A DNA stretch of 64,000 nt, from the NCBI GenBank assembly GCA_036374795.1, contig DASUTC010000210.1:2533-66532 (forward strand), given 5' to 3'. This DNA comes from Herpetosiphonaceae bacterium (GTDB lineage: Bacteria; Chloroflexota; Chloroflexia; Chloroflexales; Kallotenuaceae). The notes beneath the pieces are model-generated. The model did not search any database, had not been told where the DNA came from, and saw only the letters and a program-made list of their open reading frames with translations. The position numbers were made by a program, and so were the translations under genes. Shown one piece after another: positions 700 to 61,446 of the stretch (positions within the stretch are counted from its first letter, which is position 1; the number at the start of each line of letters is the position of its first letter).

Positions 700-1851
700 A
701 TGCACGCAACGATGACGCTGCTGCCCGGCGATGGGATCGGGCCGGAGGTGGTGGCCGAGGGCGCGAAAGTCCTCGCCGCTGTCGCGGAGCGCTGGGAGCA
801 TCGCTTCGAGCTGCGAGAGGCGCTGATTGGCGGCTGCGCGCTCGACGCGACCGGCTCGTCGCTGCCCGCTGAGACGGTGCAGCTTTGCCGCTCCGCCGAC
901 GCCGTGCTGCTGGGCGCGGTCGGCGGTCCCAAATGGGACGATCCCCATGCCGCCGATCGGCCTGAGCGCGGCCTGCTCGGCATTCGCAAAGCGCTCGATC
1001 TCTTCGCCAACTTGCGTCCGGTGACGGTCTATCCCTCGATCAGCGCGGCCTCGCCACTGCGCATGGAGCTGCTGGCGGGCGTCGATCTGATCGTCGTGCG
1101 CGAGCTGACCGGCGGGATCTACTTCGGGCCGAAGAGCCGCGAGGCCGTGGGCGACGGCGCGGAGCGCGCCAAGGATGTCTGCGTCTACACCACGGGCGAG
1201 ATCGAGCGGATCGTGCGCGTGGCCTGCGCGATGGCCCGCGAGCGGCGCGGCAAGCTCACCAGCGTCGATAAGGCCAACGTGCTGGAAACGTCGCGGCTGT
1301 GGCGCACCGTGACCACGCGCGTCGTCGCCGAGGAGTACCCCGACCTTCAGCTTGAGCATATGCTGGTCGATGCGGCGGCGATGCATCTGCTGCGCCGTCC
1401 CGCCGACTTCGATGTGATCGTCACTGAAAACATGTTCGGCGATATTCTTTCGGACGAAGCCTCGATGCTGGCCGGATCGATGGGCCTGCTGCCGAGCGCG
1501 TCGCTGGGCGGCGCAGAACAGCGGGACCGACAGGCCGGGAACGCCGAGCGCACGGACATGATCGCGTATCCGGCAGGGCGGACGCGGATCGGGCTGTACG
1601 AGCCGATCCACGGTTCCGCGCCCGACATCGCCGGGCGGGGCATCGCGAATCCACTGGCGACGATCCTCAGCGTCGCGATGCTGCTGCGTTACTCGCTTGG
1701 CCTGCACAACGAGGCGCAGGCGGTCGAGGCTGCCGTGCAGCAGGTGCTCGTGCAGGGCCACGTGACCGCCGACATCGCGCCTGCGGGAGCGCCCGCCTAC
1801 ACGACCAGCCAGGTTGGCGATGCGGTGGTCGCGGCGCTCCGTGCCGGGTAG
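700..1851 (+). CDS. leuB: 3-isopropylmalate dehydrogenase
   Basis: [19 protein letters not shown]-terminus, and [20 protein letters not shown] is the isocitrate/isopropylmalate dehydrogenase signature. GGGAG lies 4 nt before ATG 700; ATG 712 is an alternative start. Confidence 0.9.
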
Positions 1852-1953
1852 CCGGATCGGGGGTGGAGCCTGCTCCAACAGCAGGCTCCGCCGGCGTTGG
1901 ATACAGGGGCGTAATCCCTCGCTTCGTGAAGGTTAGGAACAGGACACACCGAA

Positions 1954-1987
1954 GCCGCTGGCAGACACATCGCCAGCGGCTATTTTT
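1954..1987 (+). terminator. Intrinsic terminator after leuB
   Basis: GCCGCTGGC-agacacatc-GCCAGCGGC followed by TATTTTT. A second hairpin without a U-tract lies at 1865-1889. Confidence 0.65.
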
Positions 1988-12208: not shown

Positions 12209-13327
12209 TTAGCGCTCCTGCTCACGCTCCATCGATCGGATGAACTCGGTGAAAAGCGGGTCGGCGTCGTGGGGGCCGGGCGCGGCCTCCGGGTGATACT
12301 GCACCGAGAACGCCGGATAGCGCGTGTGGCGCAGCCCCTCGACGGTGCCGTCGTTCAGGTTGCGGTGCGTCACCTGCACGTCCTCCGGCAGCGATTCGGC
12401 ATCGACCGAGAAGCCGTGGTTTTGCGACGTGATCTGCACGTGGCCGGTCGCCAGGTCTTTGACCGGATGGTTGCAGCCGTGGTGGCCGTAGGGCAGCTTG
12501 AAGGTCTTGCCGCCGACAGCCAGGCCCATGAGCTGGTGGCCCAGGCAGATCCCGAACATCGGCTTGCGGCCAAGCAGCGCATGAATATTCTCCACGGCAT
12601 AGCCGAGCGTGGCCGGATCGCCGGGGCCGTTGGAGAGGAAAACGCCGTCGGGATTGAGCTTGAGTACCTCGGCGGCGCTCATCGTCGCCGGAACCACCGT
12701 AACGTGCGCGCCGTGGTCGACGAGCTTGCGCAGGATGTTGCGCTTCAGCCCGAAGTCGTAGGCCACGACGTGGAAGCGGGGCTGGATCGGCGTCGTCTCA
12801 CTGGCCCACTCGCCGCTGCCCTCGGTCCAGGTATAGATCTCGTGGGTGCCCACGCCGCTGGCGAGATCCAGGCCCTCCATGCTGGGCGTCGCACGCGCCA
12901 GGCTCAGCAGATGATCGACATCGTCCGTCTCGGTCGAGATCGCGGCTCGCAGCGCGCCTTTTGCGCGAATATGCCGCGTCAGTGCGCGGGTATCGATGTC
13001 GGCCAGCGCGATGATGTTGTTTTCGCGGAGGTAGTGCGATAGCCCGGTGCGGGCACGCCACGACGAGTAATCGTCGGAGTAGGCGCGCACCAGAAAGCCC
13101 GCGACATACGGCTTTTCGGCTTCGGGATCGATCTCGTTCACGCCGGTATTGCCGATATGCGCCGCCGTCATGGTGACGATCTGCCCCGCGTAGGAGGGAT
13201 CGGTCAGCACCTCCTGATAGCCGGTCATGCCGGTCGCAAAGACTACCTCGCCGGTCGTCTCGCCGTCCGCGCCGAACGAGCGGCCCCAGAAGACGCGGCC
13301 ATCTTCGAGCACAAGTAAAGCGTCCAT
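12209..13327 (-). CDS. carA: Carbamoyl-phosphate synthase small (glutaminase) subunit
   Basis: GICLGHQ catalytic Cys motif and HGFSV...QYHPEA. Full-length CarA architecture. Confidence 0.93.
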
Positions 13328-13392
13328 CTCACCTCATATACCATGAGCCAGGGATTCCGCGATCCCTGGCTGCCTCTAGCTCTTGTTGTTTA

Positions 13393-14586
<1,194 letters not shown>

Positions 14587-14595
14587 CGTATGTTC

Positions 14596-15336
14596 CTACC
14601 GTACAATCTGCGTTCCGGTTCCGGCCTGCAATCCGGCCAGGTTGGTGATACGCACCGCTGGCACGCCGCTCAGCGCATCGACCGCCGAGCGCACCTTGGG
14701 CACCATGCCGCCGCCGATCGTGCCGTCGGCGATACGCGCCTCAACCTGCGCCGAGGTAAGCTGCGGCAGCACCGCGCCGTCGATCAGCACGCCGGGCACG
14801 TTCGAGACAAAGATCAGCTCGTCGGCGCGCAGCGCGGCTGCCACGGCCAGCGCCGCGTGATCGGCGTTGACGTTAGTCGGGCGCTGGTCCTGCTGATCGA
14901 CCGAGATTGGCGAGATCACCGGCAGCCAGCCCTGCCCGATCAGCGCGTGCAGCACCTCGGCCCGCACCGCGACGATCTCGCCCACGCGGCCAAGATCGCG
15001 GCCACCGGGACGCAGCGGGCGGGTTTGCAGCAGATGCAGATCTACGCCGCTGATGCCGATCGCCGGAACGCCCGCCGCGTTGAGCTGTGCGACCAGCCGC
15101 TTGTTGATCGCGCCGCTGAGCACCTGCTCTACCACCGCCATCGCCGCATCGCTGGTGGCGCGCATGCCGTCGACAAACTCGAAGTCGAGGCCGTGCCGTG
15201 CCAGCGCCACGCCGGTTTCCTTCCCGCCGCCATGTACGATCGCGCCCGGCCCCGTCAGCGTCCGCACGGCTGCACAGAGGCCGCTCAAGAACTCCGGCTG
15301 ATCGATCTCGTTGCCGCCAATTTTGAGTACATACAT
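14596..15336 (-). CDS. argB: Acetylglutamate kinase (short, LysZ-like length)
   Basis: Amino-acid kinase fold: MYVLKIGGNE...VHGGGKE...ISVDQQ. Lies between argC and argD. Confidence 0.8.
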   Translation of the reverse strand: MYVLKIGGNEIDQPEFLSGLCAAVRTLTGPGAIVHGGGKETGVALARHGLDFEFVDGMRATSDAAMAVVEQVLSGAINKRLVAQLNAAGVPAIGISGVDLHLLQTRPLRPGGRDLGRVGEIVAVRAEVLHALIGQGWLPVISPISVDQQDQRPTNVNADHAALAVAAALRADELIFVSNVPGVLIDGAVLPQLTSAQVEARIADGTIGGGMVPKVRSAVDALSGVPAVRITNLAGLQAGTGTQIVR

Positions 15337-15343
15337 CGTCGTT

Positions 15344-16351
15344 TTAGAGCAGCCCCGCCGTCTCCGGCAGGCCCAGCATAAGATTCATGTTTTGCAGCGC
15401 CTGCCCCGAAGCGCCTTTGACCAGATTATCCTCACTTGACGTAATGATCCAGTTGCCGCGATCGTCGGCCTGGTGCAGGCCGAGCACGCAGAGATTGGTA
15501 TGGACGCTGTGGCTCAGCGTCGGTAGCTGGCCCTCCGGCAGCACGCGCACAAACGGCTCGTCGGCGTAGCGCACGGCGTACAGCGCGCGCACGGCATCGG
15601 GCGCGATGTCCGGGGCCAGCCGCACGTAGATCGTCGAGAGAATGCCGCGATTGACCGGCAGCAGATGTGGCGAGAAAATCACGTGGACAGGCGCTCCCGC
15701 CGCCGCAAGCTCCTGCTCCATCTCGGCGATGTGCCGGTGCGTATGGCCGATGTTGTACGGCGCGAAGTTCTCGTTCGTCTCGGCAAAGTGCGTCTTGAGC
15801 GACAGCGAGCGGCCCGCGCCGCTCACGCCCGACTTGGCATCGACGATCACCTGACCATCCAGCAGCCCGGCCTCGGCCAGCGGCAGCAGCGCCAGCAGCA
15901 CGCTCGTCGGGTAGCAGCCCGGATTGGCGACCAGCCGTGCCTGCCTGATCTGATCGCGGTACAGCTCCGGCAGGCCATAGACCGCCTCGGCCAGCAACTC
16001 CGGCGCGGTGTGTGGATGCTTGAACCATGCGGTATAGACCTGCGGATCGCGCAGCCGAAAATCGTTGCTCAGATCGATCACGCGCGCGCCCGCCGCCAGC
16101 ACCTCTTGCGCCGTGGCGATCGTCGTGGGGCCGTGCGGCAGACATAAAAACACAATATCGCAGGCCGCCGGATCGGCCTCGGCGGCATCGATCAGCGGCA
16201 AGGTGTCGGTAGTCGGGAAGGTGTCGCTGAGCCGCTTGCCCGCGTAGCTGCGCGACGTGGCAAAGACGATCTCGGCCTGGGGATGCCGCCGCAGCCAGCG
16301 GATCAGCTCAAAGCCGGTATAGCCCGTCGCGCCGTAAATTCCAACGCGCAT
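15344..16351 (-). CDS. argC: N-acetyl-gamma-glutamyl-phosphate reductase
   Basis: MRVGIYGATGYTG, and the active-site Cys in ANPGCYPT. Confidence 0.92.
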   Translation of the reverse strand: MRVGIYGATGYTGFELIRWLRRHPQAEIVFATSRSYAGKRLSDTFPTTDTLPLIDAAEADPAACDIVFLCLPHGPTTIATAQEVLAAGARVIDLSNDFRLRDPQVYTAWFKHPHTAPELLAEAVYGLPELYRDQIRQARLVANPGCYPTSVLLALLPLAEAGLLDGQVIVDAKSGVSGAGRSLSLKTHFAETNENFAPYNIGHTHRHIAEMEQELAAAGAPVHVIFSPHLLPVNRGILSTIYVRLAPDIAPDAVRALYAVRYADEPFVRVLPEGQLPTLSHSVHTNLCVLGLHQADDRGNWIITSSEDNLVKGASGQALQNMNLMLGLPETAGLL

Positions 16352-16432
16352 CAGTTTCCTCCACTATTCCAGATAGCTCCTCCGCAGACGAAAGGACGGT
16401 ACTTGGTGGATGCCCGCCCCGGCCTCGCGGCG

Positions 16433-16939
16433 CTATCGGCCCAGCCGCAGGATCATCGCGATCTCGTCGCAGCAATCCTGCTTCGAGCAGAACTGGCAAT
16501 CCTGCCAGACTTTCTGCGATAGGATCGTCTTCTCCACCACCTCGAAGCCGAGCCGCGCGAAGAACTCGACCTGATACGTCAGCGCGAAGACGGTCGGAAT
16601 GCCCAGCGCCCGCGCGTCCGAAATCAGCGGCGCGCACAGCCGACGGCCCAGGCCCCGGCCCTGCCACGCGGGCGCGACCGCCAGCGACACGATCTCGGCC
16701 AGGTCGCGCCAGGTGATTTTGAGGCCAGCGCAGCCGACGATCGCGCCGTCGACGTCGACGACGATGAAATCGCGCAGGTTGTTGTAGAGCTGCGCCAGCG
16801 ATTTGGGCAGCATCAAGCCTTGCGCGGCGTAGCTGTTGATCAATCCGGCCATCGGCTCGACATCGCCGACGTAGGCGCGGCGAACCACTGGCTCGCCCTC
16901 GGTGCGCGCAGGCGGCATGTGTAGTGCAATCGTTGCCAT
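16433..16939 (-). CDS. GNAT acetyltransferase, short N-acetylglutamate-synthase-like
   Basis: WQGRGLGRRL acetyl-CoA motif, 168 aa. The start is 3 nt after the argH stop, inside the arg operon. Confidence 0.65.
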   Translation of the reverse strand: MATIALHMPPARTEGEPVVRRAYVGDVEPMAGLINSYAAQGLMLPKSLAQLYNNLRDFIVVDVDGAIVGCAGLKITWRDLAEIVSLAVAPAWQGRGLGRRLCAPLISDARALGIPTVFALTYQVEFFARLGFEVVEKTILSQKVWQDCQFCSKQDCCDEIAMILRLGR

Positions 16940-16942
16940 AAT

Positions 16943-18310
16943 TTATTGCGTGCAGACGCGGGCCGCCGTCAGTTGCTCCGCGAGCGACTGAGCAGCGGTG
17001 CCGCCGCTACTATGATGCTGTTCGATCGAGCGCTGCATATCGAAGACGTGCAGCCAGACATCCGCCAGCTCGGTATGCGCCGCCCGCACGGTTTCGAGCG
17101 GCAGATCACGCAGCGCGATGCCCTGCGTTTCGGCGGCGCGAACCAGCTGTCCGACCAGACCGTGTGCCTCGCGGAAGGGCACGCCCAGCCGCACCAGCTC
17201 GTCGGCGAGGTCGGTCGCCAGCATCGTATCGTCCAGCGCGGCGCGCATCCGCTCGGTGTTGAAGCGCAGCGTGCCGATCACGCCGCCGACGACCGGCAGC
17301 GTCATCAGCAGCGTATCGATCGTGTCGAACAGCCCTTCTTTGTCTTCCTGAAGGTCTTTGTTGTAGGTCGATGGCAGGCCCTTGAGCACGGCCAGCACGC
17401 TGACGAGGTTGCCGATCAGCCGCCCGGCCTTGGCGCGCGTCAGCTCCAGCGAGTCGGGATTTTTCTTCTGCGGCATCAGCGACGAGCCGGTTGCATAGGC
17501 GTCGTCGAGCGTCACAAAGCCAAACTCCGCCGAGCTGTAGATGATCAGATCCTCGGCCAGCCGCGACAGATGCGTGCCCAGCAGCGCCCCGGCGAAGAGC
17601 AGCTCGGCCACGAAATCACGATCTCCGACGGCATCCATGCTGTTGCGCGTCACGTCGTCGAAGCCGAGCACCCGCGCCAGCAGCGCCCGATCGATGCCAA
17701 AGGTGTTGCCCGCCAGCGCCGCCGCGCCCAGCGGTAGGAGGTTGAGCCGCCTGCGGCAATCCTGAAGCCGCTCGCGGTCGCGCTGGAGCGGCCAGAAGTG
17801 CGAGAGCAGCCAGTGCCCCACCGATACCGGCTGCGCGCGCTGAAGATGGGTATAGCCCGGCATCAGCGTCGCCTGATGCGCCTCGGCCTGCGTCACCAGC
17901 GCGCGCTGGACCTCGCAGAGCGCCTCGTCGAGCCGCTTGATCGCCATGCGCGCATAGATCCGCAGGTCGGTCGCTACCTGATCGTTGCGCGAGCGCCCGG
18001 TGTGCAGCTTGCCCGCGACCGGCCCGACCAGCTCGTGCAGGCGGCGCTCGACGGCGGTGTGAATATCTTCGTCGGAGAGTCGTAGCTCGAACTGTCCGGT
18101 GCCGAACTCTTCCAGCACCTGTCCCAGCCCGCGCTGCAACTGATCGCGCTCGTCGGTGGTGATCAGCCCCACGTCGGCCAGCGCCTCGGCGTAGGCTACC
18201 GAGGCCTCGATGTCGGCCTCGTACAAGCGCCAGTCAAAGCCGATCGAGGCATTGAACTGCTCCATCAGCTCGCTCGTCTGGCCCTCGAAGCGTCCGCCCC
18301 ATAATTTCAT
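16943..18310 (-). CDS. argH: Argininosuccinate lyase
   Basis: MKLWGGRFEG start and the GSSLMPQKKNPD signature. The ORF-track extension to 18478 reads through the heptad repeat, so I rejected it. Confidence 0.93.
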   Translation of the reverse strand: MKLWGGRFEGQTSELMEQFNASIGFDWRLYEADIEASVAYAEALADVGLITTDERDQLQRGLGQVLEEFGTGQFELRLSDEDIHTAVERRLHELVGPVAGKLHTGRSRNDQVATDLRIYARMAIKRLDEALCEVQRALVTQAEAHQATLMPGYTHLQRAQPVSVGHWLLSHFWPLQRDRERLQDCRRRLNLLPLGAAALAGNTFGIDRALLARVLGFDDVTRNSMDAVGDRDFVAELLFAGALLGTHLSRLAEDLIIYSSAEFGFVTLDDAYATGSSLMPQKKNPDSLELTRAKAGRLIGNLVSVLAVLKGLPSTYNKDLQEDKEGLFDTIDTLLMTLPVVGGVIGTLRFNTERMRAALDDTMLATDLADELVRLGVPFREAHGLVGQLVRAAETQGIALRDLPLETVRAAHTELADVWLHVFDMQRSIEQHHSSGGTAAQSLAEQLTAARVCTQ

Positions 18311-18330
18311 CGCTACCTCTTCGAGCAAAC

Positions 18331-18392
18331 AGAGAACAAAGAACAGGAGATTCAGTTTCGTTGTTCTTTGTTCCGTTGTTCTTTGTTCTTTA
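18331..18392. repeat. Heptad (GAACAAA / TTGTTCT) array, inverted arrangement
   Basis: AGAGAACAAAGAACAGG...GTTGTTCTTTGTTCCGTTGTTCTTTGTTCTTT. It fills the argJ-argH spacer, and the two arms are complementary over about 12 nt. Confidence 0.8.
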
Positions 18393-19637
18393 TTACGTTC
18401 GATACTCCGCATTGATCGACACGTACTCGTGCGAAAAATCGCAGGTCCAGACCGTCGCCGTCTCGTCGCCGAGGCCAAGCTCGACCGTGATCTGCACCTC
18501 GGAGCCGCTCAGCGCGGCGTGTGCGTCGGCCTCGCTGTAGGCCAGCGGAGCGCCCGCCTCGACCAGCCGAACGCTGCCGAAGGAGAGCGCCAGCCTGCCG
18601 GGATCGACCGTCACGCCGCTGCGCCCGACCGCCGCCAGCACGCGGCCCCAGTTGGCGTCGATGCCGTAGATCGCCGTCTTGACCAGGCTTGATGTAGCGA
18701 TGGTCCGCCCGATCTGCCGCGCCTCGTCGAAGCTGCGCGCGCCCTGCACATCGATAGTGACGAACTTGGTCGCGCCCTCGCCGTCGCGTGCAACCAGCTT
18801 AGCAAGTTCGGTGCAGACGATCGTCAGCGCCTCGCGGAACGCGCGAAAAGCGGGCGAGTCGGTGGATGTGATCGGCGGATGATCGGCCAGGCCGTTCGCC
18901 AGCACCAGCAGCGTATCGTTGGTGCTGGTATCGCCGTCGATCGACATGCAGTTGAACGAGCGCTCCACGGCGTAGCGCAGCGCGGCATCCAGCGCCACGG
19001 GATCGACCGCCGCGTCGGTGCAGACCAGCGCCAGCAGCGTCGCCATGTTGGGATGGATCATACCAGCGCCTTTGCACATGCCGCCGATCACGATCGGCAC
19101 GCCGTCGAGCGTGGTGCGCAGCGCGACCGCTTTGGGCCGCGTGTCGGTGGTCATGATCGCGCGCGCGGCGGCGTGTCCGGCCTCGGCATCCGCCCCAATC
19201 TCTCTGGCGGCGGCAGCCACGCCCGGCAGCAGCTTCTTCATCGGCAACTGCTCGCCGATGACCCCGGTGGACATCACCAGCACGCTGTCGCAGGGCAGAT
19301 CGAGCGCCTCGATCACGGCCTGCGCCATCGTCTGCGTGTTGCGCTGGCCCTGCTCGCCGGTGATCGCGTTGGCGCAGCCGCTATTGATCACCACGGCGCG
19401 AATCCCGGCGGACTTGCGCTGGAGCAGCGCGCGATCGAACATGACCGGCGCGGCCTGAAGCTGGTTCGTGGTAAAGACCGCCGCCGCCGCGCACGGCTGG
19501 TCGGCGCTGATCAGCGCCAGATCCAGGCCGCCGTGCTTCTTGATGCCCGCCGCGACTCCAGCGGCTCGAAAGCCCGGCACGCAGGTGATCGGATCGTCGC
19601 TGATGGCGGCGTGGATCGTCTGTCGTTTGTCGCTCAT
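18393..19637 (-). CDS. argJ: Bifunctional ornithine acetyltransferase / N-acetylglutamate synthase
   Basis: ATLLALVCTDA self-cleavage site region and C-terminal NAEYRT. ATG 19637 overlaps the upstream stop (ATGA). Confidence 0.92.
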   Translation of the reverse strand: MSDKRQTIHAAISDDPITCVPGFRAAGVAAGIKKHGGLDLALISADQPCAAAAVFTTNQLQAAPVMFDRALLQRKSAGIRAVVINSGCANAITGEQGQRNTQTMAQAVIEALDLPCDSVLVMSTGVIGEQLPMKKLLPGVAAAAREIGADAEAGHAAARAIMTTDTRPKAVALRTTLDGVPIVIGGMCKGAGMIHPNMATLLALVCTDAAVDPVALDAALRYAVERSFNCMSIDGDTSTNDTLLVLANGLADHPPITSTDSPAFRAFREALTIVCTELAKLVARDGEGATKFVTIDVQGARSFDEARQIGRTIATSSLVKTAIYGIDANWGRVLAAVGRSGVTVDPGRLALSFGSVRLVEAGAPLAYSEADAHAALSGSEVQITVELGLGDETATVWTCDFSHEYVSINAEYRT

Positions 19638-20290
19638 AATGGCTCCGTCGAGGCCAGCATCTCCGAATCGAGATGCGCGACATCGTTGTAACGCAACAAA
19701 TACCAGCGCTGGTCGCTCGCGGGGTCGCCCTGCCGCCACTGGGTGATCGAGGTATGATGAATCCAGAAGCCGGAGCGCAGCACGAGCGCCGCGCTGGAGC
19801 CGAGGAAGTAGTAGAACGATGCCTCAATGATCCCGCCGTGCGCCACGACGACGATGTTCTGTCCTTCGTGCTGGCGCAGGATGCGGCTGAGCGCCCTGCC
19901 GACGCGGGCAACAAACATGGCGAAGCTCTCGCCGCCAGGCGAGTACGGCTGGTACACGATGTCGCGCCCCGCCGTGTTGAAGCGCTCGCGCGCCTCGTCG
20001 TAGGTCATGCCGTCGGCCTCACCTGGCCGAATTTCCTCGAACTCCTCGTCCCAGCGGATCGGCACGTCGAGGCCAGCCGCCGCCGCCTGCGCCGTCTCAC
20101 GGGCACGCCGCAGCGGGCTGGCGTAGAGCACATCGGCGCGGATCTCGCCACGCGCCAGCCGAGCTTGCAGCCGCGCCGCCTGCTCGTGGCCGCGCGGCGT
20201 GAGCCCCTGGCAGCCGTTGCGCCCGCCGACGATATTGCCGACGTTGCAGACCGCCTCGCCGTGTCGAATGATGTAAAGATTCGTCATCAT
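19634..20290 (-). CDS. Histidine phosphatase (PGAM-like) family protein
   Basis: LYIIRHGEA RHG motif and VVVAHGG. Has a 4-nt ATGA overlap with argJ. Confidence 0.75.
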   Translation of the reverse strand: MMTNLYIIRHGEAVCNVGNIVGGRNGCQGLTPRGHEQAARLQARLARGEIRADVLYASPLRRARETAQAAAAGLDVPIRWDEEFEEIRPGEADGMTYDEARERFNTAGRDIVYQPYSPGGESFAMFVARVGRALSRILRQHEGQNIVVVAHGGIIEASFYYFLGSSAALVLRSGFWIHHTSITQWRQGDPASDQRWYLLRYNDVAHLDSEMLASTEPL

Positions 20291-20298
20291 GACCTTTG

Positions 20299-20433
20299 CT
20301 TCCACGTTCCACGTTCCACATTCCAGGTTTCGGTTTCCAGCTCTTAGTTCTTGGTGCGCCGGGCGATCATGCCGGGCGCCCATGCCGGGCGCCCTCTGGG
20401 CATGGCACCCGGTTCTTGGTTCTCGGTTCTCGG

Positions 20434-20434
<1 letters not shown>
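20299..20434. repeat. Composite heptad-repeat element with GC-rich core
   Basis: CCACGTT/CCAGGTT heptads, the core at 20353-20412 (GGTGCGCCGGGCGATCATGCCGGGCGCCCATGCCGGGCGCCCTCTGGGCATGGCACCCGG), then GTTCTTG/GTTCTCG heptads. Confidence 0.8.
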
Positions 20435-21693
<1,259 letters not shown>

Positions 21694-21749
21694 CTCATGC
21701 TCCTCGTTAGAGCCAGTCCGCGCAGCACTGCCTTGGCTCATCGTTGAGC

Positions 21750-21785
21750 ATAAAAAAGCAGCCCCGCCGTCTGGCAGAGCTGCTT
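21750..21785 (-). terminator. Attenuator terminator in the arg-operon leader
   Basis: Minus-sense AAGCAGCuCUGCC-AGAC-GGCGGgGCUGCUU followed by UUUUAU, about 55 nt upstream of the argG ATG. Confidence 0.65.
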
Positions 21786-21812
21786 ACATCCATCAATCCA
21801 ACGCAAGCGCAC

Positions 21813-21887
21813 CTAACCAGACGTGGTATCCGGCTTCGTACGGCGACGACGGGGCGTGCTGTGTAGATTGTACGTTTGTCTGTGCAT
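21813..21887 (-). CDS. Putative arginine leader peptide (24 aa: MHRQTYNLHSTPRRRRTKPDTTSG)
   Basis: My hand translation of the minus strand. Codons 13-16 are CGT CGT CGC CGT. The ATG lies 10 nt after the -10 box, and the stop TAG lies about 27 nt before the terminator stem. Confidence 0.6.
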   Translation of the reverse strand: MHRQTYNLHSTPRRRRTKPDTTSG

Positions 21888-21897
21888 GTGAGGCGCG

Positions 21898-21926
21898 AGT
21901 ATAGCACGCGATCTGGCGCGTGTCAA
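21898..21926 (-). promoter_or_regulatory. Consensus sigma-70 promoter of the arg operon
   Basis: Minus strand: TTGACA (21926-21921), a 17-nt spacer, then TATACT (21903-21898). Confidence 0.65.
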
Positions 21927-22164
21927 CGACGCTGAATGGCTGCCGCTGCGACATATGGCACGTTTGTGCCCCCCGCTATGGGCGGATTAGATGGATCGCT
22001 TGTGCGAAAGATGGTCGTATCCTCCTACCCCCTGCTGGCGATTAGTCCGATGTTGATTAAGCAACGAGACGGTATCCTTCCTATCAGCGAAAAGTGTTAT
22101 CTCCATCTCCACCATGCTCGACGGATTGTTGACTCGGTAGTTCTATTGAAGGACGGATACGACT

Positions 22165-25100
22165 ATGAACAGTCAACCCATGATGATCAAAAGGTTCAAC
22201 ACGCTTAGGCTATTCACAGTCCTGGGCATGGTGCTTGGTTTATTTGCACCGCTCACGCCGACCACGAGCGTGAGTGCCGCGTCGGTTAGCTCGGCCTCGT
22301 TCACCGGCGGCACCAGCACCATCAACGTGAGTGGTACTTTATACGCGAAGAATGGCGGCGCGCTGACTCTGACAGTCGTGACCGATAGTACGACCAAGTG
22401 TGTCGAAGTAGTGGGCGCTCATACCGCCACCCAAAGCTCGAACACGGTGAAGTCGTCTTGGACCTTCTCGTTCACTGCTGGCTCCGGCGACGGCGTGCGG
22501 ACGGTAACAACGACCGCCTATCGGAGCTTTAACGGCCAAGGCAAATGTACGGCGAATGCAGGCGAGAGCGTGGGTGCGTACCCAGCCTCGTACATTCTTG
22601 ATAACACTGGCCCGGTCGTGACGGCGGCGCTGACTCCCGCCGCGAACGCCGCAGGCTGGAATAACAGCAATGTTTCGATCGCCTGGACGGCCAGCGATGC
22701 AGGCTCCGGTGTTGCCAGCGGACCTATTCCCGCTACCGACAGCCAGCAGCAGAATACCCCAGGTGTCCCCAAGAGCGCGATTGCGACCGACCGGCTGGGC
22801 AACACCGGCAGCGCCTCGGTGACAGTCAAGCTCGACAAGACAGCGCCCTCGATCAATGCCAGTCGCACCCCGGACCCTAATAGCTTCGGCTGGAACAACA
22901 GCAGCGTGACGATTGAATTCACCTGCGCCGATGCGCTCTCTGGAATCAAGAGTTGTACCGGCGGCGGCTCCGTAACGCTGTCCAGCGAAGGTGCAAATCA
23001 GTCGGTTCCTGGCACCGCTATTGACAATGCTGACAACACGAATAACACTGGCGTGAGTGGCATCAACATCGACACGACGGATCCGACCTTGAGCGGTGCT
23101 CCGACGACCGCGCCGAATGCAGCCGGGTGGTACAAGAACGACGTGACGATCGACTGGACCGCCGCCGACACGCTTTCGGGCATCGTAGCGGAGCCAGCCA
23201 ATAGCACGATCGGCGGCGAGGGCACGGACCTGATCGCTAGGGAGACGGTCAGCGACAGGGCGGGCAACACGACAAGCGCCACCAGCCCGGCGGTGAAGAT
23301 CGACCGCACCGCGCCCAACACATCCGCGACAGCGCCGACGAGTTGGAACAATACCAACGTCACGGTGAGCCTCAACGCCGCCGATAACTCGTCGGGCGTC
23401 AAAGCCACCTACTTCAAGCTCAACGGCGGCGCGCAGCAGACAGGCACCAGCGTCGCGATCAGCGCCGAGGGCATCCATAGCCTCCAGTTCTGGAGCGAAG
23501 ATCAGGCCGGTAACGTCGAGGCTGCGAAGTCGGTCCAGGTCAAGATCGACCGGACGCCGCCGACGATCAACCATACCCAGTCGCCAGCGGCAAATATCCT
23601 GGGCTGGAACAACAGCAATGTGACCGTCACCTTTACCTGTGCTGATAGCGGCGGCTCCGGCGTCGCAAGCTGCACCGCGCCCCAGACCGTGACCACCGAA
23701 GGCCAGAGTCAGGCCGTGACGGGCACCGCGACCGACCATGCTGGCAATACCGCGACCGATCCGGCAACGGTGAGCATCGATAAGACCAGGCCGACGGCGA
23801 CGGCTGCCGCCGATCGTAGCGCCAACTCCCTTGGCTGGTACAACGACAATGTCACTGTTACCTTCACCTGCGCCGACGCGCTCTCCGGCCTGTATAGCTG
23901 CTCCGCTTCTCAGACGTTGGGCGAGGGCGCGAACCAGAGCGCCACGGGCGCGGCCAGTGACGCCGCAGGCAACGTCAGCGAAGCGGCTGTCGTCTCCGGC
24001 ATCAACGTGGACAAGACCGCGCCGACGCTGAGCGGCGCTGCGACGACCGCGCCGAACGCCAACGGTTGGTACAACGGCGATGTGACTGTTCACTGGACGG
24101 CGGCGGACTCGCTCTCTGGACTCGCATCGGCTGCTCCTGACGCCAGCACGATCGTCGGCGAAGGCGACGACCTTTCCTCCAGCACCTCGGTCAGCGACAA
24201 GGCGGGCAACAGCGCCAGCACGACAGTCAAGGGGATCAAGATCGACCGCACCGCGCCGAGCACCCTCGCCAGCGTTCCCGCGCCGCTCGATAGCGGCTGG
24301 TACGCGGCTGGCTTCAATGTCACTCTGAACGGCATTGATACCATGTCGGGTGTTGACAAGACCTATTACAGCGTCAACGGCGGCGCTGCCCACGTGTACA
24401 GCGGCTCGTTCAACCATAACACTCCCGGCGTCAGCACCATCACCTTCTGGAGCGTGGACCAGGCTGGAAACGTTGAGGACAAGGCTGCGCCAGGTCACAG
24501 CATCACGCTCAAGATCGATAACCTGCCGCCAGCGATCCAGGGCATCCGCTCACCTGCGGCTAACGGCTTCGGCTGGAATAATGTCCCCGTGACGGTCAGC
24601 TTCACCTGCGCCGATGGCGAGTCCGGCCTGGCGTCAGGCGTGGCGGGCTGCACGGACGCCGTGACGCTGAGCAACGAGGGCGCGAGCCAGTCCGTTGTCG
24701 GCAATGCGCTCGACAATGCCGGTAACAGCAGCAGCGCCAAGGTTGAGGATATCAACATCGACACGACGGTTCCGACGCTGAGCGGTGCTCCGACGACTAA
24801 CGCCAACGCTGCGGGCTGGTACAAGGGCGATGTGACGATCGCGTGGACCGCACAGGATGGCCTCGCAGGCATCGACCCGGCGACACAGCCAGCCGATAGC
24901 GTGATCACCGGCCAGGGCAGCAGCCTGAGCGCCGGACCTGTCAGCATCGCAGACAAGGCGGGCAACAGCACCAGCGCGACAGTCGGCGGCATCAAGATCG
25001 ACCGCACCGCGCCGACGATCAGCGGTGCTACAGTCAACGACAATGGCACGGCGCGCAGCGCCAACGCAGCAGGCTGGTTCAACAGCGCCGTCCGCGTCCG

Positions 25101-59674: not shown

Positions 59675-60520
59675 CTACTGAACGGTCATCTCAAACCAGC
59701 GGCTAAGCAGCGCGATCACCTGATCGGCGGTTTCTTCGATCGGCTTGTTGGTGACGTTGACCAGCGCAAATCCATGCCGCCGACACAGCCGCCGCGCGCT
59801 CATGATCTCGTCTTGGAGCATCTCAGGCTCCGTATAATCGCGGCCAGTCGTTCCGACCATTGCTGAGCGCCGCCAGTGACGATGCTGGAGCAAAATATCC
59901 ACGTCGATCGTCAGACCAACCACGCGATGCGGATCGATCTGGAACAGCTCGGCTGGCGGCGCGACGTGTGGCACCAGCGGAACATTCGCGACTTTCCAGC
60001 CGAGCACCGAGAGGTAGATGCTGAGCGGCGTTTTGCCGACGCGCGACACGCCGACCAGCACCACGTCGGCCTGGTGCAGCTCATGCGGGTTGCGCCCGTC
60101 GTCATGCTCGACGGTGTACTCAATCGCGTGGATGCGTTCGAGATAGACCTCGTGCTGGCGCTGGTAGAGGCCGGGCTGTCCCAGCGGCTCATGCCCGAAG
60201 ACTGAGGCGATTTGCGCAAGCGGATCGCCGATCGTGTCGATCGCCGGAATCCGGTGCTGCTCGGTCAGCGCGACCAGCGTCCGGCGCATGGTCGGCTCGA
60301 CCATCGTGTGGATGATAATGCCCTGCTTGGCCGCTACCTGCGCGATCACCTCTGGAAGCTGCTCGGCGTGGCGGACCTGCGGAATCACCAGGACTTGCGG
60401 ATTGATCTGTGGAAACTGCGAGAGCGCGATCCGGGCGATATGCTTGCCGAGCGCGCCAGCGCCGCCGGAGATGATAAAGATCGGTGGAAGCTCTTGGGAG
60501 TTTGGCTGTATACTCGCCAT
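59675..60520 (-). CDS. ppsR: Pyruvate-phosphate dikinase / PEP synthase regulatory kinase-pyrophosphorylase (DUF299)
   Basis: VVLVGVSRVGKTPLSIYLS...KVANVPLV. Confidence 0.85.
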   Translation of the reverse strand: MASIQPNSQELPPIFIISGGAGALGKHIARIALSQFPQINPQVLVIPQVRHAEQLPEVIAQVAAKQGIIIHTMVEPTMRRTLVALTEQHRIPAIDTIGDPLAQIASVFGHEPLGQPGLYQRQHEVYLERIHAIEYTVEHDDGRNPHELHQADVVLVGVSRVGKTPLSIYLSVLGWKVANVPLVPHVAPPAELFQIDPHRVVGLTIDVDILLQHRHWRRSAMVGTTGRDYTEPEMLQDEIMSARRLCRRHGFALVNVTNKPIEETADQVIALLSRWFEMTVQ

Positions 60521-61244: not shown

Positions 61245-61446
61245 ATCTTCGCCGTGCATAGGCGACGCCGCTAGTGGATTTGCGAGATGCGGGGGACACG
61301 TCGCGCACGTGTCCCAGGCAGTTGTTAGCACCCGCCTGCGCCGTAGCCGTACTAGCCGAACTTCCAGGTTGGGCCTCATCGACTAGCCGATGCTGCCACG
61401 CTGGCCGCGCGCTACACTCATGATCAACAATGAAACGGAGGACGAT

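Follow-up and report, generated by a model that had tools for sequence, protein, structure and literature searches.

In a 64,000-nt stretch of the Herpetosiphonaceae bacterium contig DASUTC010000210.1 (phylum Chloroflexota; hereafter, the window), the argininosuccinate synthase gene argG, which heads a cluster of arginine biosynthesis genes, is preceded by a short open reading frame (ORF) containing four consecutive arginine codons and, downstream of this ORF, by an intrinsic terminator. We read the minus strand between positions 21600 and 22200 for the elements of this leader, compared it with the regions upstream of argG in related bacteria, and conclude that it is most likely (with a probability of about 0.8, judging from sequence comparison and RNA folding) a classical four-segment ribosome-mediated transcription attenuator specific for arginine. 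A preliminary description of this DNA had already interpreted the region as a candidate Arg-codon attenuator with a near-leaderless leader, and the comparative and folding evidence presented here, all of it obtained in silico, supports that interpretation. As far as can be judged in this way, the element combines the features of the classical attenuators, namely, a leader ORF, clustered codons for the end product of the pathway, a terminator, a mutually exclusive antiterminator, and an appropriate placement of the stall and stop positions relative to the alternative structures.

Anatomy of the arg leader and its predicted switch

All major parts of the leader that were listed in the preliminary description are present on the minus strand (Table 1): the promoter TTGACA-17-TATACT at 21926-21898, the ATG at 21887, located 10 nt after the -10 box, the 24-codon ORF in which codons 13-16 encode arginine and, about 27 nt past the stop codon, the terminator hairpin (21785-21756) with its U-tract, which lies ahead of an argG gene supported by a GAGGAG Shine-Dalgarno (SD) sequence. 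With its 17-nt spacer and TG-extended -10 box, the promoter scores 11/12 in a consensus scan. There is no SD sequence in the 10 nt that separate the -10 box from the leader ATG, and the 5' untranslated region is accordingly predicted from the sequence to be only about 0-4 nt long. The terminator hairpin consists of 13 base pairs (bp) and a 4-nt loop, has a predicted energy of -23.2 kcal/mol when folded alone, and is followed by TTTTTTAT; it is separated by 27 nt from the leader stop codon and by 56-62 nt from the argG ATG, and a consensus scan found no second consensus promoter between the terminator and argG. The terminator does not mark the end of an upstream gene because the upstream neighbor, which encodes a 1481-aa DUF7743 protein, is divergent. 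Folding of the 199-nt leader RNA yielded a z-score of -2.9 compared to shuffled sequences.

In the mechanism that we propose, transcription would start a few nucleotides before the AUG, and the ribosome would load on the essentially leaderless 5' end of the transcript. When charged tRNA-Arg is scarce, the ribosome would stall at the CGU CGU CGC CGU codons, covering region 1 of the leader (21835-21828) and leaving region 2 (21823-21798) free to pair with the emerging 5' arm and loop of the terminator in a 23-bp antiterminator, so that RNA polymerase would continue into argG and, presumably, into the co-directional genes through carA. When arginine is plentiful, the ribosome would reach the UAG codon inside region 2 and, because it would occlude region 2 in that position, the terminator would form and transcription would end about 56 nt before argG. 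An untranslated RNA should terminate as well because region 1 would sequester region 2.

Folding under constraints that mimic ribosome occupancy, a check put forward in the preliminary description, is consistent with this scheme. We masked the RNA up to the stalled ribosome and folded the remainder. In the free leader RNA, the minimum-energy structure (-55.6 kcal/mol) consists of the 1:2 hairpin, in which 21835-21828 pairs with 21822-21815 (predicted at -8.8 kcal/mol alone), and the terminator; with the A site of the ribosome on Arg15 or Arg16, it is the 23-bp antiterminator between 21823-21798 and 21792-21768, which takes up the entire 5' arm and loop of the terminator; and with the ribosome at UAG, the terminator is restored. 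Thus, termination is predicted for the free RNA, read-through for the RNA with a ribosome stalled on arginine codons, and termination again for the RNA with a ribosome at the stop codon. The antiterminator had been described as a pairing of CGUCUGG (21823-21817) with CCAGACG (21774-21768); this complementarity is real, but the 7-bp extent is an underestimate because these segments form only the outer helix of the 23-bp structure. Region 2 of the window forms a duplex of -18.5 kcal/mol with its cognate terminator arm compared to the mean of -9.3 kcal/mol with non-cognate arms, and none of the 37 non-cognate arms pairs as well.

Conservation and coding signature of the leader in Chloroflexota

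We assembled a comparison set of 80 argG loci from GTDB genomes and 80 loci from metagenomes, nearly all from Chloroflexota, with ArgG proteins 64-74% identical to that of the window. The same architecture precedes argG in 39 of the 80 GTDB loci (40 of 81 with the window included) and in 28 of the 80 metagenome loci, about 66 distinct loci altogether, so that the scan of related genomes suggested in the preliminary description indeed reveals a conserved Arg-rich mini-ORF followed by a terminator. The shared design comprises a TTGAC[AGT]-16/17-TAnnnT promoter, a gap of 5-11 nt (most often 10) that lacks an SD sequence, an ATG, an ORF with an arginine cluster, a terminator, and an SD-led argG. 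The dimensions vary widely, with ORFs of 9-42 codons, 18-73 nt between the stop codon and the terminator, and 22-224 nt between the terminator and argG; the arginine cluster takes the form of R-x-R-R, RRR or RRRR. Among the 48 terminator-bearing regions upstream of argG in the GTDB set, 38 contain an Arg-cluster ORF, compared to 4.1 expected from shuffles and none on the reverse complement, and a strict scan of both strands of the 80 GTDB loci (1.04 Mb) produced 46 matches, of which 30 are located directly upstream of argG. The carriers include the cultured bacteria Bellilinea caldifistulae GOMI-1 (L045) and Anaerolinea thermolimosa IMO-1 (L056) as well as Candidatus Amarolinea (L009). The sequences around the arginine cluster differ completely between subgroups, such that the architecture is common whereas the sequence is not. 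The TAnnnT of the -10 box is invariant in an alignment of 19 Anaerolineae-type leaders. In the 64-kb window itself, the pattern TTGACN-N16-18-TAnnnT-N4-12-ATG/GTG has a single match, which is the arg leader, a count that is uninformative on leaderless usage elsewhere.

The coding frame provides evidence that the ORF is read as codons. For this analysis, distance from the -10 box was the sole criterion for picking the start, and the first Arg-Arg hexamer was sought in any frame; in 50 of the 53 loci, this hexamer is in frame with the promoter-proximal ATG, at eight different distances between 12 and 39 nt. The distance from the -10 box to the ATG is exactly 10 nt in 36 of the 53 loci, and the number of residues preceding the arginine cluster ranges from 4 to 28 across the family. 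The arginines of the cluster are kept while the nucleotides encoding them vary synonymously between loci (CGU, CGA, CGC, AGG). A search of the protein collection for the exact 24-aa leader peptide of the window returned no record, and the leader ORF is therefore unannotated.

A finer view comes from seven Herpetosiphonaceae loci (L161-L167) with ArgG at least 90% identical to that of the window, which were obtained through an exact-protein cluster; in a metagenome scan for nearer kin of the window, the ArgG identity never exceeded 74%. These seven loci align with the window from the -35 box on, and 97% of the columns further upstream differ. The leader peptides encoded in these loci are MNTQPHNLVSTPRRRRTKPDQTSG, MNTQSYNLLSTPRRRRTKPDQTSG and MKTQTNKRLSMSRCRTRPDRTSG, the last of which (L164 and L165) results from an in-frame 3-nt deletion within the cluster combined with an adjacent K to R replacement, with three arginine codons within five retained. 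Variable positions account for 39% of the N-terminal codons, mostly non-synonymously, and for 0-25% of the RNA stems. Region 2 and the next 15 nt are invariant, the terminator arms vary at 8-15% of the positions and the hairpin loops at 44-60%, including the loop of the 1:2 hairpin, and two of the eight stem columns of region 1 vary. The changes in the terminator (G-U to A-U, G-C to G-U) preserve pairing.

The choice of arginine codons in the leaders is distinctive as well. In ten genes of the window, arginine is encoded by CGC (63%), CGG (20%), CGU (6%) and CGA (5%), and CGU, though rare in these genes, makes up three of the four codons in the leader cluster. In the 66 leaders taken together, the clusters contain CGT (126), CGC (43), CGA (30), AGG (8), AGA (3) and CGG (1; n = 211). 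CGU, CGC and CGA are decoded by tRNA-Arg(ICG). The strong preference for CGU and CGA, with CGG being avoided, suggests that one particular tRNA-Arg isoacceptor is sensed. Carter, Bartkus and Calvo reportedly noted in 1986 a comparable use of rare CUA codons in the leu leader of Salmonella; by analogy with that case, the arg leader might be a sensor adjusted to tRNA-Arg(ICG) and to codons with slow decoding.

Several further observations concern the same loci and scans. Two metagenome-assembled genomes (MAGs) labelled as Desulfobacterales (L042) and as a cyanobacterium (L050) carry an Arg leader and an ArgG 67-69% identical to that of the window, which suggests either that these contigs belong to Chloroflexota and were mis-binned or that argG was transferred horizontally along with the attenuator. 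In a Chloroflexia MAG (L025:2760-2912), the region upstream of argG contains, instead of the Arg leader, a tandem repeat of three identical small hairpins (AACGTGCTTTAGCACGTT followed by TGATGTTT) spaced 67 nt apart. Additional strict-scan matches in the window, at 1820-1936 and 61287-61328 of the plus strand, were judged spurious on appearance. The first of these lies in a segment (1820-1981, plus strand) that contains an Arg-rich 38-codon ORF (MRWSRRSV...LRRRW...) and, after it, a 29-nt hairpin, AGCCGCTGGCAGACACATCGCCAGCGGCT, in a place where overlapping long ORFs end; most likely, this is a gene-end terminator rather than a second attenuator.

Covariation, switch logic and competing explanations

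The alternative structures of the leader are supported by compensatory changes in an alignment of 41 Anaerolineae-type leaders (A4), which was evaluated against 500 shuffles. For the terminator, 89.6% of the cells are paired and 7 of the 13 pairs are compensatory, and none of the shuffles reaches any of the measures. For the antiterminator, 89.0% of the cells are paired, with 17 double-change cells and a score of 0.153 versus 0.097, a score that none of the shuffles attains. The top contributor to the antiterminator covariation is the pair 74-191 (AU in 22 leaders, GC in 14 and UA in 1), and the same column of region 2 also covaries with region 1 (UA 14, CG 10).

The position of the ribosome has the predicted effect in most of the family when the folding takes the order of transcription into account. 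When full-length leaders were folded at equilibrium with every stall position masked, the terminator probability dipped at or just after the arginine cluster in only about one third of the loci because strong terminators dominate at equilibrium. In a later test, transcripts were truncated before the 3' arm of the terminator, and the paired fraction of the terminator 5' arm served as the readout. Over 62 loci, the median paired fraction was 0.29 for the free RNA, rose to 0.75 with the last arginine codon in the A site, and was 0.20 with the ribosome at the stop codon. Pairing was higher at the arginine position than at the stop codon in 58 of the 62 loci and higher than in the free RNA in 54 of the 62, the latter being the non-trivial comparison because masking more RNA there raises pairing. 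Region 2 starts 14-20 nt past the last arginine codon, just outside the stalled ribosome. Across lineages whose terminators are unrelated, region 2 pairs better with its own terminator arm (-15.3 kcal/mol) than with foreign arms (-11.3 kcal/mol), with p about 5e-6, a value that, like the other p-values, overstates independence given that the loci are phylogenetically related.

Besides this relatedness, several findings weigh against an arginine-specific attenuator or limit its reach. About half of the argG loci lack the element; in most of these, there is a co-directional gene within about 100 nt upstream, so that argG is operon-internal, or else the contig is short. When full-length RNA is folded at equilibrium, the terminator persists in roughly half of the relatives wherever the ribosome is stalled. 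In the window, with the full-length leader and the ribosome at Arg16, the antiterminator (-32.4 kcal/mol) and the enforced terminator (-31.8 kcal/mol) are nearly iso-energetic, and therefore the decision would have to be kinetic, as in trp, with read-through hinging on the co-transcriptional order of events. Furthermore, the truncated-transcript model of the window permits the antiterminator from codon 2 on, so that the position of the arginine codons is permissive rather than uniquely required. The covariation of the 1:2 helix is weak, with 78% of the cells paired and a score reached by 20 of the 500 shuffles, and the 1:2 hairpin can only tentatively be considered to complete the predicted four-segment scheme. 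The model also presumes that leaderless transcripts are translated in this lineage. Finally, ArgR may act at a divergent Chloroflexota operator; in favor of attenuation, the 64-kb window contains no match, with up to 3 mismatches, to the ARG box (TNTGAATWWWWATTCANW) in its E. coli consensus form, the one used for this search.

The existence and covariation of the alternative structures are indifferent to what throws the switch, and an RNA-binding protein or a small-molecule ligand could do so instead of the ribosome, with the ORF being incidental or an aid to ribosome loading. Such a factor would fit the nucleotide invariance of region 2 and its surroundings in the close relatives and the many loci that show no clean ribosome-position switch in equilibrium folding. 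What all lineages have in common, however, is the in-frame cluster of arginine codons (50 of 53 loci) rather than any RNA sequence or fold: the nucleotides of the cluster change synonymously, the flanking sequences differ completely between subgroups, and no Rfam family matches, T-boxes and riboswitches included. The in-frame indel of L164 is also hard to explain without translation, and we consider a factor-dependent switch unlikely. Still less likely, in our view, is the absence of any conditional regulation, in which case the terminator would constitutively damp a strong promoter, or the leader would be a separate small gene or small RNA, with argG transcribed by leak-through or from another promoter. 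In favor of this reading, the terminator is strong, its bypass is a prediction, and the gap between the terminator and argG measures 56-62 nt in the window and up to 224 nt in relatives. A purely constitutive terminator would nevertheless have no use for a conserved, covarying antiterminator over its 5' arm; the element is associated specifically with argG, as in 30 of the 46 strict matches in 1.04 Mb, no second consensus promoter follows the terminator, and the peptide is too variable for a functional small protein.

It is also conceivable that the Arg-rich peptide (R-x-R-R-P/T...) itself arrests the ribosome from within the exit tunnel, perhaps triggered by free arginine or by a metabolite related to it, similarly to the fungal arginine attenuator peptide, TnaC or SpeFL. 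The R-x-R-R motif, often followed by P-x-P or T-K-P, is conserved at the peptide level in large subgroups, but outside the arginine cluster there is no peptide conservation between subgroups, the N-terminus drifts even among the close relatives, and the length preceding the cluster is as variable as described above. Moreover, stalling at high arginine would here favor the antiterminator and thereby turn biosynthesis on, the opposite of the expected response, and the bias towards CGU and CGA, both of them rare, speaks for decoding rate more than for peptide chemistry. Given also that the five representative leader peptides scanned match none of the known arrest-peptide families, we regard this as the least probable of the three alternatives. 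Taken against them, attenuation by a ribosome that stalls on arginine codons remains the preferred explanation.

Known regulatory systems, the arg operon and implications

We found no counterpart of the arg leader among catalogued elements. Rfam yielded no relevant match at E <= 10 within 20000-24000 and none at the gathering score in the whole window or on the leaders of 15 relatives' loci; weak matches to BSnc120 and to miRNA families were dismissed as noise. For five representative leader peptides, neither Pfam nor NCBIfam produced a family at E <= 10. In the searchable literature, the amino acids with leader-peptide attenuation are Trp, His, Leu, Thr, Ile/Val and Phe, whereas arginine is represented by ArgR repression and, at the RNA level, by T-boxes; no Arg-codon leader-peptide attenuator for arginine biosynthesis was found there, and an earlier prediction might exist in attenuator surveys or in RegPrecise. 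The expectation that an arginine attenuator would be unusual thus holds for Rfam, Pfam, NCBIfam and the searchable literature.

The closest known systems include the enterobacterial leaders trpL, hisL, leuL, thrL, ilvL/ivbL and pheL. Like the arg leader, these are short ORFs between the promoter and the first biosynthetic gene, with clustered codons for the end product, a terminator, an exclusive antiterminator and a 1:2 hairpin, which in the arg leader is tentative, and with the stop codon placed such that a terminating ribosome covers region 2. The arg leader differs in that it would sense arginine, starts without an SD sequence about 10 nt past the -10 box, comes from Chloroflexota, usually has an R-x-R-R cluster instead of a long homopolymeric run, and shows no similarity to the Rfam leader families. 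Among the nearest precedents are the ribosome-mediated attenuators, outside Proteobacteria, of Corynebacterium glutamicum, for which leader peptides of ilvB, trpE, leuA and aroF are described in PMC4046766; the same article cites Morbach et al. 2000, whose title refers to formation of the ilvBNC leader peptide without a ribosome binding site. The leaders of this actinobacterium sense Val/Ile/Leu, Trp, Leu and Phe/Tyr, but not Arg, and are unrelated in sequence.

The other near precedent is the Salmonella speF leader. In it, ribosome pausing at two consecutive arginine codons of orf34 reports arginine and redirects the folding of the downstream mRNA; unlike the arg leader, however, this SD-dependent gammaproteobacterial leader controls ornithine decarboxylase, an enzyme of polyamine synthesis rather than of arginine biosynthesis, and its output is RNase G sensitivity, access to the ribosome binding site, and Rho termination instead of a choice between an intrinsic terminator and an antiterminator. 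T-boxes sense tRNA charging and act through the choice between a terminator and an antiterminator. The Arg-specific T-box leaders of Firmicutes resemble the arg leader in exerting RNA-level control tied to arginine, but in these, uncharged tRNA binds the RNA directly, with neither an ORF nor a ribosome involved, and the arg leader has no T-box match. In Seliverstov et al. 2005 (PMC1262725), the one RNA-level regulation listed for arginine genes is by T-boxes, in other species. ArgR/AhrC, acting at ARG boxes, has the same physiological role, arginine feedback on arg genes, but is a protein repressor that acts at transcription initiation. On the whole, the sequence comparisons support the view that the arg leader, which belongs to no catalogued family, works by a known mechanism but is new in its amino acid, its phylum and its leaderless start.

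Table 1. Coordinates of the arg leader and of the genes downstream of it in the window
Feature	Position	Strand	Basis or remark
-35 hexamer TTGACA	21921..21926	minus	TTGAC invariant in alignments of relatives
-10 hexamer TATACT, extended TG (gTGcTATACT)	21898..21903	minus	invariant among Herpetosiphonaceae relatives
Putative leader ORF, 24 codons + UAG, encoding MHRQTYNLHSTPRRRRTKPDTTSG	21813..21887	minus	ATG 21887, stop 21815-21813
Putative regulatory Arg codons 13-16, CGU CGU CGC CGU	21840..21851	minus	sequence reading
Region 1 (AGCCGGAU), 5' arm of the 1:2 anti-antiterminator hairpin	21828..21835	minus	predicted pairing with 21822-21815
Region 2 (CGUCUGGUUAGGUGCGCUUGCGUUGG), 5' strand of the antiterminator, over the last leader codons and stop	21798..21823	minus	predicted 23 bp with 21792-21768
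Region 3, 3' strand of the antiterminator	21768..21792	minus	terminator 5' arm (21785-21773), loop AGAC and first base of the 3' arm
Intrinsic terminator hairpin (regions 3:4), AAGCAGCUCUGCC-AGAC-GGCGGGGCUGCUU	21756..21785	minus	folding and terminator scan
U-tract (UUUUUUAU)	21748..21755	minus	invariant in close relatives
argG (argininosuccinate synthase), first regulated gene	20434..21693	minus	NF001770, 629 bits; GAGGAG SD before ATG 21693
Rest of the co-directional cluster: histidine-phosphatase-family gene, argJ, argH, GNAT N-acetyltransferase, argC, argB, argD, carA	12209..20383	minus	profile matches

Most products of the argG cluster (ArgG, J, H, C, B, D and CarA) serve arginine synthesis, and the tight spacing of the genes suggests that the cluster from argG to carA, which is followed by ung, forms one transcription unit (Table 1). 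The ArgG of the window is identical to HEX6290649.1 from a Herpetosiphonaceae MAG. The order argG-argJ-argH-argC-argB-argD-carA given in the preliminary description is correct for the genes named, but two members of the cluster had been missed, the histidine-phosphatase-family gene and the GNAT gene. The former (249 aa, 19634-20383, minus strand) is located between argG and argJ, and its best match is to an alpha-ribazole-phosphatase-like model with a score under the cutoff; in the close relatives L161-L167, argJ begins 2 nt after argG, and therefore this gene appears to be a recent insertion in the arg operon of the window. The latter (168 aa, 16433-16939, minus strand; PRK07757, 191 bits) comes directly after argH and also matches the C-terminal domain of PRK12308, a 624-aa fused ArgH model; these matches suggest a short N-acetylglutamate synthase that is a partner of ArgH without being fused to it.

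On the promoter side, a perfect inverted repeat, CACGCG-N6-CGCGTG, is embedded in the promoter spacer (21905-21922, minus strand). The close Herpetosiphonaceae relatives show no variation in its outer parts (TTGACACG ... CGTGCTATACT), and the repeat is absent from the Anaerolineae-type leaders; it could be an operator for an additional regulator or mere promoter context accompanying the extended -10 box. Five of the close relatives (L161-L163, L166 and L167) have an extra gene for a 166-168-aa protein (PF24838, 8xMP) that separates the large divergent DUF7743/Big_13 gene from the promoter of the arg leader, about 250-320 nt ahead of argG; this extra gene is absent in the window, L164 and L165. 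Elsewhere in the window (60153-60252, plus strand), ARAGORN called a 100-nt tRNA-Met with the anticodon at position 38, and Rfam detected no tRNA in the whole window at the gathering score; the call is probably a false positive, or else the tRNA is unusual, contains an intron or is degraded.

Textbooks use arginine biosynthesis as their example of repressor control, by ArgR. If our interpretation is correct, classical attenuation would, with this conserved Arg-codon attenuator, reach one more amino acid and a phylum that has received little study. In dozens of lineages, the -10 box and the ATG are consistently 10 nt apart, which suggests that the leaders are designed for leaderless initiation; coupling that is tight from the very first nucleotide would account for this spacing, and the leaders would offer a natural system for the study of transcription-translation coupling on leaderless mRNAs, with B. 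caldifistulae GOMI-1 and A. thermolimosa IMO-1 as cultured carriers. The unannotated ORFs of 9-42 codons and their terminators deserve annotation, and the element offers a compact arginine-responsive part for synthetic biology. For the phylum as a whole, we see roughly even odds that, in Chloroflexota including Anaerolineae, Herpetosiphonaceae, Chloroflexaceae, Amarolinea and others, arginine synthesis is mainly under the control of a previously undescribed leaderless leader-peptide attenuator, tuned to tRNA-Arg(ICG) through rare CGU and CGA codons, which would bring in the one major amino acid pathway believed to lack classical attenuation and possibly replace ArgR.

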